A DNA stretch of 64,000 nucleotides, from NCBI RefSeq assembly GCF_013122565.1, contig NZ_CP053258.1; one strand, 5' to 3'. A program made the translations under genes and the position numbers. The notes beneath the pieces are model-generated. The model had not been told where the DNA came from. It worked only from the letters and a program-made list of their open reading frames with translations, and searched no databases. Below, piece by piece: positions 11,913 to 11,936 of the stretch. Source of the stretch: Escherichia coli (GTDB lineage Bacteria > Pseudomonadota > Gammaproteobacteria > Enterobacterales > Enterobacteriaceae). Within the stretch, counting starts at the first letter, position 1. Each line of letters begins with the position of its first letter.

Positions 11913-11936
11913 CAGGGCAAGTTTCGCCCTGTTTTT
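11913..11936 (+). other. Hairpin plus T5 between rbn and elaD, oriented as a plus-strand terminator
   Basis: CAGGGCaagtttcGCCCTGttttt; both flanking genes are minus-strand. Confidence 0.4.

Follow-up and report, generated by a model that had tools for sequence, protein, structure and literature searches.

A single-copy hairpin between rbn and elaD of Escherichia coli that resembles an intrinsic terminator on one strand only

Background

Bidirectional intrinsic terminators, in which one hairpin carries U-rich tails on both strands, were reportedly described by SEnd-seq in the 2019 work of Ju and colleagues. A second described arrangement concerns the 3' ends left by Rho-dependent termination, which are shortened as far as a stem-loop that protects them (Dar and Sorek 2018, PMC6061677). 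Here we set beside both of these a hairpin that lies in the spacer between rbn and elaD of E. coli. By "the window" we mean the whole 64-kb stretch (64,000 nt) of DNA that was analysed. The region considered is the E. coli elaB-elaA-rbn-elaD-yfbK segment, which is reversed relative to MG1655, and coordinates are converted as MG1655 = 2394476 - window coordinate.

Results and discussion

The hairpin and its two readings

On the plus strand, positions 11913-11931 read CAGGGC AAGTTTC GCCCTG, followed by TTTTT at 11932-11936 and then by AATAATAAG. The core stem consists of six perfect pairs, five of them G/C, around a 7-nt loop, and two flanking A-T pairs bring the stem to 8 bp over 11911-11933. 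The sequence, the open reading frames and the RefSeq annotation all bear out the initial annotation in its description of a hairpin with a plus-strand T-run between two genes, rbn and elaD, that are both on the minus strand. The uridine run that it placed before the hairpin on the minus strand is, however, an A-run (AAAAA), and UUAUCGCA follows the stem there. On the rbn strand, the stem begins 17-19 nt past the rbn stop codon (TAA), the core stem at 19 nt.

Terminator scores (d-scores) were calculated in the manner of d'Aubenton-Carafa with current energy parameters, and are included in the following description of the features:

11913-11931, no strand: core hairpin, CAGGGC / 7-nt loop / GCCCTG, from sequence and fold; the MG1655 copy is identical
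11932-11936, plus strand: T5 run directly 3' of the stem, U-tract UUUUUAAU, d-score +4.0; on the minus strand, A5 before the stem
11898-11912, minus strand: tail UUAUCGCAACCCGCG, no U-tract, d-score -22
11951-12868, minus strand: rbn (RNase BN), from the open reading frames, in agreement with the RefSeq annotation at near-identical E. coli loci
10588-11763, minus strand: elaD, 391 aa here, 35.5% GC, from the open reading frames, with the same agreement

The plus-strand RNA folds at -12.9 kcal/mol (z = -3.3, with 1 of 200 shuffles equally good), the energy of this hairpin ranging from -9.7 to -12.9 kcal/mol. The minus-strand RNA folds at -14.6 kcal/mol (z = -4.2, with none of 200 shuffles equally good) into a 10-pair stem that includes G-U pairs. 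The plus-strand d-score of +4.0 (T-score 3.94) is just above the terminator threshold, while the minus-strand reading, with 3 U in the 8 nt of its tail, has a T-score of 2.15; the terminator at 6987 of this window, taken as a reference, scores +31. A U-rich tract lies directly 3' of the stem on the plus strand, and none does on the minus strand. As judged from sequence, only the plus-strand reading resembles an intrinsic terminator, and it would be a moderate one at best, with six G/C-rich and two A-U pairs, a 7-nt loop and five U.

A strict scan of both strands of the window, requiring a perfect 6-bp stem with at least five G/C pairs, a 3- to 8-nt loop and no fewer than five T among the next 6 nt, returned two loci, namely this hairpin and one at 6987-7005, where the mean expected by chance is 0.18 loci per window (60 dinucleotide shuffles, same scan). 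The 6987-7005 locus is a canonical terminator by sequence, presumably that of yfbN. A standard terminator scan of the window does not have the rbn/elaD hairpin among its sites, apparently because the stem is extended into the T-run. The hairpin 19-mer occurs once in the window, even at up to 3 mismatches, and is present, at a single site per genome (median 1), in 4493 of the 5426 complete E. coli genomes searched, and this single-copy state rules out a REP/BIME or other repeated extragenic palindrome. No family match was obtained in an Rfam scan of 10400-13500 at E <= 10, which gave chance eukaryotic hits only. The hairpin is real, non-random and single-copy, and it is of an ordinary kind rather than a new type of element.

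Conservation and the edge of the elaD haplotype

The GC content is 50.5% in rbn and 35.5% in elaD, and this step in composition falls at the hairpin. About 83% of the complete E. coli genomes carry elaD. In E. coli without elaD, homology to the window breaks at the rbn stop codon and resumes approximately 8 codons before the end of yfbK, and from one haplotype to another the spacers are unrelated. We found no ElaD relatives in the other loci fetched, including those of E. albertii and Citrobacter, nor in a search of one genome per species. In a profile-free search of 1.8 billion representatives there is a gap in ElaD identity from about 93% to at most 36%, and the nearest relatives outside Escherichia, at or below 36% identity, lie in unrelated contexts; because these homologues are distant and differently placed, the hairpin upstream of elaD cannot be traced through them. 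The break in homology at the rbn stop codon, the unrelated spacers and the range of ElaD together place the hairpin within the elaD haplotype, at its edge. The elaD segment itself is AT-rich, horizontally acquired and strain-variable.

Among E. coli and cryptic-clade sequences, identity is 94-98% over the 187-nt spacer, which resembles rbn in this, and 89-96% over elaD, and the hairpin is not conserved above the surrounding spacer or rbn. Of 4494 E. coli records, 3839 show no difference over the 71 nt around the hairpin. The variants inspected comprise one in the loop, one immediately next to the stem, a G to A substitution and an IS1 element in the loop, and the T5 run is present in every one of them. 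With the G to A substitution, seen in three strains, the closing pair is lost on the plus strand and kept as G-U on the minus strand. Compensatory changes were not found among the E. coli and cryptic-clade spacers, in which there is too little variation for covariation. The IS1 insertion is that of E. coli ET210 (locus L084, 1788-2530), in which elaD and yfbK are deleted and the leftover half of the hairpin and the T-run adjoin the IS1 end.

Several other features of the locus were observed. The elaD gene is unusually variable: the protein has 391 aa here and 403 in K-12, with 92% identity between the two, it divides into very many 90%-identity clusters, and the gene is annotated as frameshifted or as a pseudogene in five fetched E. 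coli genomes (loci L002 and L085-L088 among those examined). In some Escherichia haplotypes (L089, L090 and L092), rbn-elaD is followed directly by yfbL, and yfbK is absent. The haplotypes lacking yfbK and those lacking elaD together make the locus a structural hotspot; it is "hotspot B" in PMC13185298. When positions 11700-12000 were compared with the 5426 complete E. coli genomes, the best match was 99.3% over 301 bp and most were 95-99%, which places the source strain outside that set, and the window therefore carries a less common haplotype of the elaD region. Between the convergent genes yfbK and elaD, at 10490-10525, is a perfect 16-bp hairpin (-30.8 kcal/mol, z = -7.4) with a U-tract on neither strand (d-scores -20 and -25), which probably serves as a stem-loop that protects 3' ends, not as an intrinsic terminator.

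Transcription of the locus in MG1655

Adams et al. (2021; PMC7815308, supplementary file 2) counted reads over the 800 nt on either side of each position, in untreated cells and with the Rho inhibitor bicyclomycin; we confirmed the column order of their table by recalculating the Rho scores of the two entries that concern this locus. The first, antisense to elaD at MG1655 2382764 (-), or window 11712 (+), has 274 reads upstream and 21 downstream in untreated cells and 503 and 139 with bicyclomycin, for a Rho score of 3.6. The second is on the rbn strand, at MG1655 2382642 (+), or window 11834 (-), with 57 reads upstream and 31 downstream untreated, 46 and 81 with bicyclomycin, and a Rho score of 3.2; it lies 79 nt past the hairpin on that strand, at a resolution of 800 nt. 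The RNA 5' of both positions has more C than G and is rut-like in this respect, the minus-strand spacer having a C/G ratio of 1.6-2.5 in 60-nt windows. The two stretches are:

11764-11912, minus strand: spacer RNA past the hairpin (149 nt), C 26%, G 13%; holds the published Rho region at 11834
11563-11640, plus strand: strongest C>G stretch, C/G 4.2, in the antisense RNA; followed closely by the Rho region of Adams et al. (2021) at 11712

The elaD region is transcribed on the plus strand into non-coding RNA, and this transcription drops sharply near the spacer, in part through the action of Rho; in the experiment of Adams et al. (2021), antisense transcription of elaD exceeds sense transcription. 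The plus-strand transcript antisense to elaD that the initial annotation had suggested is therefore partly supported, in that such reads exist and end near the spacer, although that end is largely due to Rho and lies approximately 200 nt before the hairpin. With Rho inhibited, the ratio of downstream to upstream reads at 11712 (+) is 0.28, near the 0.25 that would be expected, assuming uniform coverage, if all antisense transcripts ran an extra 200 nt and stopped at the hairpin.

By SMRT-Cappable-seq (PMC6131387), rbn is a one-gene unit starting at 2381581, and there is no unit that includes elaD or yfbK. Read-through from rbn past the hairpin, which had also been suggested, is favored by the poor U-tract and by the Rho region beyond it, but it does not normally yield a bicistronic rbn-elaD mRNA. 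The pattern that the initial annotation had set against its own suggestions, a clear minus-strand 3' end for rbn with no plus-strand transcription through elaD, differs from the published MG1655 data. No Term-seq 3' ends are present at MG1655 23825xx, on either strand, in the tables of Adams et al. (2021) and TERMITe, a weak negative result given the low expression of the locus, and at this low expression the Term-seq tables give no 3' end for rbn, whether a primary one or a mature one at the foot of the stem. The Cappable-seq and ITT supplements have no entries for the rbn/elaD locus, MG1655 has no plus-strand gene or feature annotated at the hairpin, and promoters and terminators are not discussed in the ElaD papers.

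Shimada et al. (2014, PMC3946193) found by genomic SELEX-chip that the sigma-70 holoenzyme binds the rbn>elaD spacer, and proposed a promoter there, the hexamers of which are exactly the two flanks of the hairpin:

11909-11938, minus strand: hexamers TTAAAA-18-TGTTAT flanking the hairpin, elaD promoter proposed by Shimada et al. (2014), 2.7 bits

Each hexamer has 4/6 matches, the -10 lacks an A at position 2, and by our rough scoring the site falls below the best minus-strand sites in a scan of 12100-11700. Better promoter-like sites are found on the plus strand, several inside elaD and one in the spacer. One of those inside elaD is the sigma-70-like site TTGGTT-18-TATAAT at 11459-11488.

A working model

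The reading that we favor, with a confidence that falls a little short of even, is that the hairpin is a one-way backstop terminator for antisense transcription leaving elaD, and that on the rbn strand the same stem-loop caps the 3' end of the mRNA while Rho carries out the termination. On the plus strand, the stem, the 7-nt loop and U5 make up the full anatomy of an intrinsic terminator, which would most likely act as a backstop for antisense transcription through elaD. That transcription might come from read-through of yfbK, from promoters inside the AT-rich elaD gene, or from both. Rho would end most of it some 200 nt before the hairpin, and those polymerases that escape Rho would stop at U5 before they could enter rbn in the antisense direction.

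On the minus strand, the stem-loop is predicted to be more stable and has no U-tract. Polymerases transcribing rbn probably pass it, because the U-tract is poor and a Rho region lies 79 nt downstream. Some 80 nt beyond it, in the C-rich spacer, Rho would then release the rbn transcripts. On these transcripts the stem-loop would remain as a likely block to 3' exonucleases, and the rbn mRNA may be trimmed back to the stem, which would both define and protect its end.

The significance of the element is mostly one of annotation, in that it would add one unannotated terminator-like element to the map of E. coli K-12. It would also be a concrete case of a hairpin acting differently on each strand at the border of an AT-rich gene gained by horizontal transfer.

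Alternative explanations

It seems to us unlikely that the hairpin is simply rbn's own weak intrinsic terminator, with the T-run of the opposite strand being the upstream A-tract that often accompanies terminators. The position 17-19 nt past the rbn stop codon would suit such a role, as would the greater stability of the minus-strand stem (-14.6 kcal/mol, z = -4.2), the monocistronic rbn unit in SMRT-Cappable-seq, and the G to A variant, which pairs on the minus strand only. However, the tail UUAUCGCA, with 3 U in 8 and a d-score of -22, is a poor one, the rbn strand has a Rho-dependent region 79 nt past the hairpin, and the Term-seq tables contain no primary rbn 3' end.

A second alternative arises from the genes found next to rbn elsewhere. 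In 35 of the 80 Enterobacteriaceae loci that we fetched with RNase BN, rbn is followed by a cheV-like gene in the same direction, in Citrobacter, Enterobacter, Leclercia, Kluyvera and other genera (loci L006-L046). In Superficieibacter the order is rbn, cheV and a convergent yfbK, which indicates that elaD occupies the place of cheV. Codons ~7-17 of cheV (ATTGATGACAGGGCGAATCTGACCCTGT) align at 22 of 28 positions with ATTAAAAACAGGGCGAAACTTGCCCTGT at 11939-11912, in the same orientation and at the same position relative to rbn:

11912-11939, minus strand: possible 28-nt fossil of codons ~7-17 of a cheV-like gene; suggestive (5.4 bits, E = 0.14 window-wide)

The score of this local alignment was equalled by none of 500 dinucleotide shuffles, by 1 of 1000 hairpin-preserving random queries and by 3 of 684 other tiles of the window. 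An nhmmer profile of 35 cheV 5' regions has its best match in the whole window at the hairpin, although with only the modest values given above. A protein-level relic of CheV was not found in the window, E. albertii and elaD-less E. coli have no cheV-like match, and we found no cheV DNA retained in E. coli genomes. Compared with cheV, the hairpin has A-T in place of the outer G-C on both sides, C-G in place of the closing C.A, and AAAAA in place of GATGA. The sequence comparison is suggestive of a 28-nt cheV fossil, the match being specific to this position, significant in the restricted tests and weak window-wide.

The hairpin might accordingly be a terminator look-alike with no function, either a relic of cheV, whose coding sequence would once have stood after rbn, or a piece of DNA that arrived with elaD, and this too we consider improbable. 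The alignment with cheV, its rarity among shuffles, random queries and other tiles, its place as the best nhmmer match in the window, and a conservation not above that of the flanks are all in its favor. On the other hand, the profile match is slight and no relic is seen at the protein level; every difference from cheV makes the terminator better; and any polymerase arriving at a stem followed by U5 should terminate to some degree, whatever the origin of the sequence.

The cheV origin can also be joined to the backstop function, in that a remnant of cheV may have outlived the replacement by elaD, and a few substitutions may have made of it a one-way insulator that shields rbn from elaD antisense transcription. 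We think this combination rather unlikely. If the cheV origin were true, later substitutions would have improved the stem and created the A5/T5 run, and the hairpin would be a modest example of defunct coding sequence reused as an element of regulatory appearance.

In the rbn-cheV spacers of other genera (L006-L031) there is a conserved GCCGATAA box approximately 25-35 nt past the rbn stop codon, which we take to be the flagellar sigma-28 -10 consensus. This box adjoins a hairpin that has its T-run before it, not after. In E. coli, GCGATAAC adjoins the hairpin on the opposite strand.

It is very unlikely, in our judgement, that the hairpin ends a discrete plus-strand transcript of ~95-100 nt from a divergent promoter in the spacer, TAGAGG-17-TATAGT at 11806-11834, the symmetric -10 region of which is common to a candidate elaD promoter. 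The promoter-like site scores 8.6 bits, the RNA 11841-11945 folds with its terminal hairpin intact, and RNA polymerase holoenzyme binds the spacer in genomic SELEX. Nevertheless, there is no Rfam match and no annotated MG1655 feature, the fold barely beats shuffled sequences (z = -2.05), the Term-seq tables have no 3' end for it, and the 42-aa open reading frame that overlaps it has non-synonymous changes only. That reading frame (11833-11961, plus strand) is preceded by AAGGAG, crosses the hairpin into the 3' end of rbn and is open in seven haplotypes. We rejected it as coding, since its ~12 substitutions are all non-synonymous and it would run past the terminator.

Least probable of all, and in our view very improbable, is that the elaD promoter is formed by the sequences flanking the hairpin, with the inverted repeat an incidental or regulatory spacer within it: Shimada et al. 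(2014) do propose these very hexamers for the spacer between rbn and elaD, and premature termination in a long elaD 5' UTR could account for the Rho region at 11834, but the hexamers match at 4/6 without the key A at position 2 of the -10, the 2.7 bits fall below the best minus-strand sites, and SELEX-chip peaks can neither place nor orient a promoter.

Comparison with known systems

Read on the plus strand, the hairpin is like a canonical intrinsic terminator in having a G/C-rich stem of 6-8 bp, a 7-nt loop and UUUUUAAU directly 3'. It is unlike one in that no annotated gene or known RNA ends here on the plus strand, its targets would be non-coding antisense RNAs, and no 3' end in the Term-seq or TERMITe tables falls on it. 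With the bidirectional terminators it shares the use of one hairpin that is met from both directions, the A-run of one strand being the U-run of the other; in contrast to them, it has a U-tract on one strand only, and its neighbors are co-directional rather than convergent.

The rbn strand recalls the trimmed ends of Rho-dependent transcripts, with a stem-loop lacking a U-tract just past the stop codon, then a C-rich, G-poor stretch and a bicyclomycin-sensitive region, although the Term-seq tables contain no rbn 3' end and the Rho signal, at 800-nt resolution, could belong to an elaD leader. Compared with the suppression, by Rho and H-NS, of spurious and antisense transcription in foreign genes rich in AT, the hairpin differs in that it would be a Rho-independent addition; the likeness lies in elaD, which has 35.5% GC, contains antisense promoter-like sites and gives rise to Rho-sensitive antisense reads.
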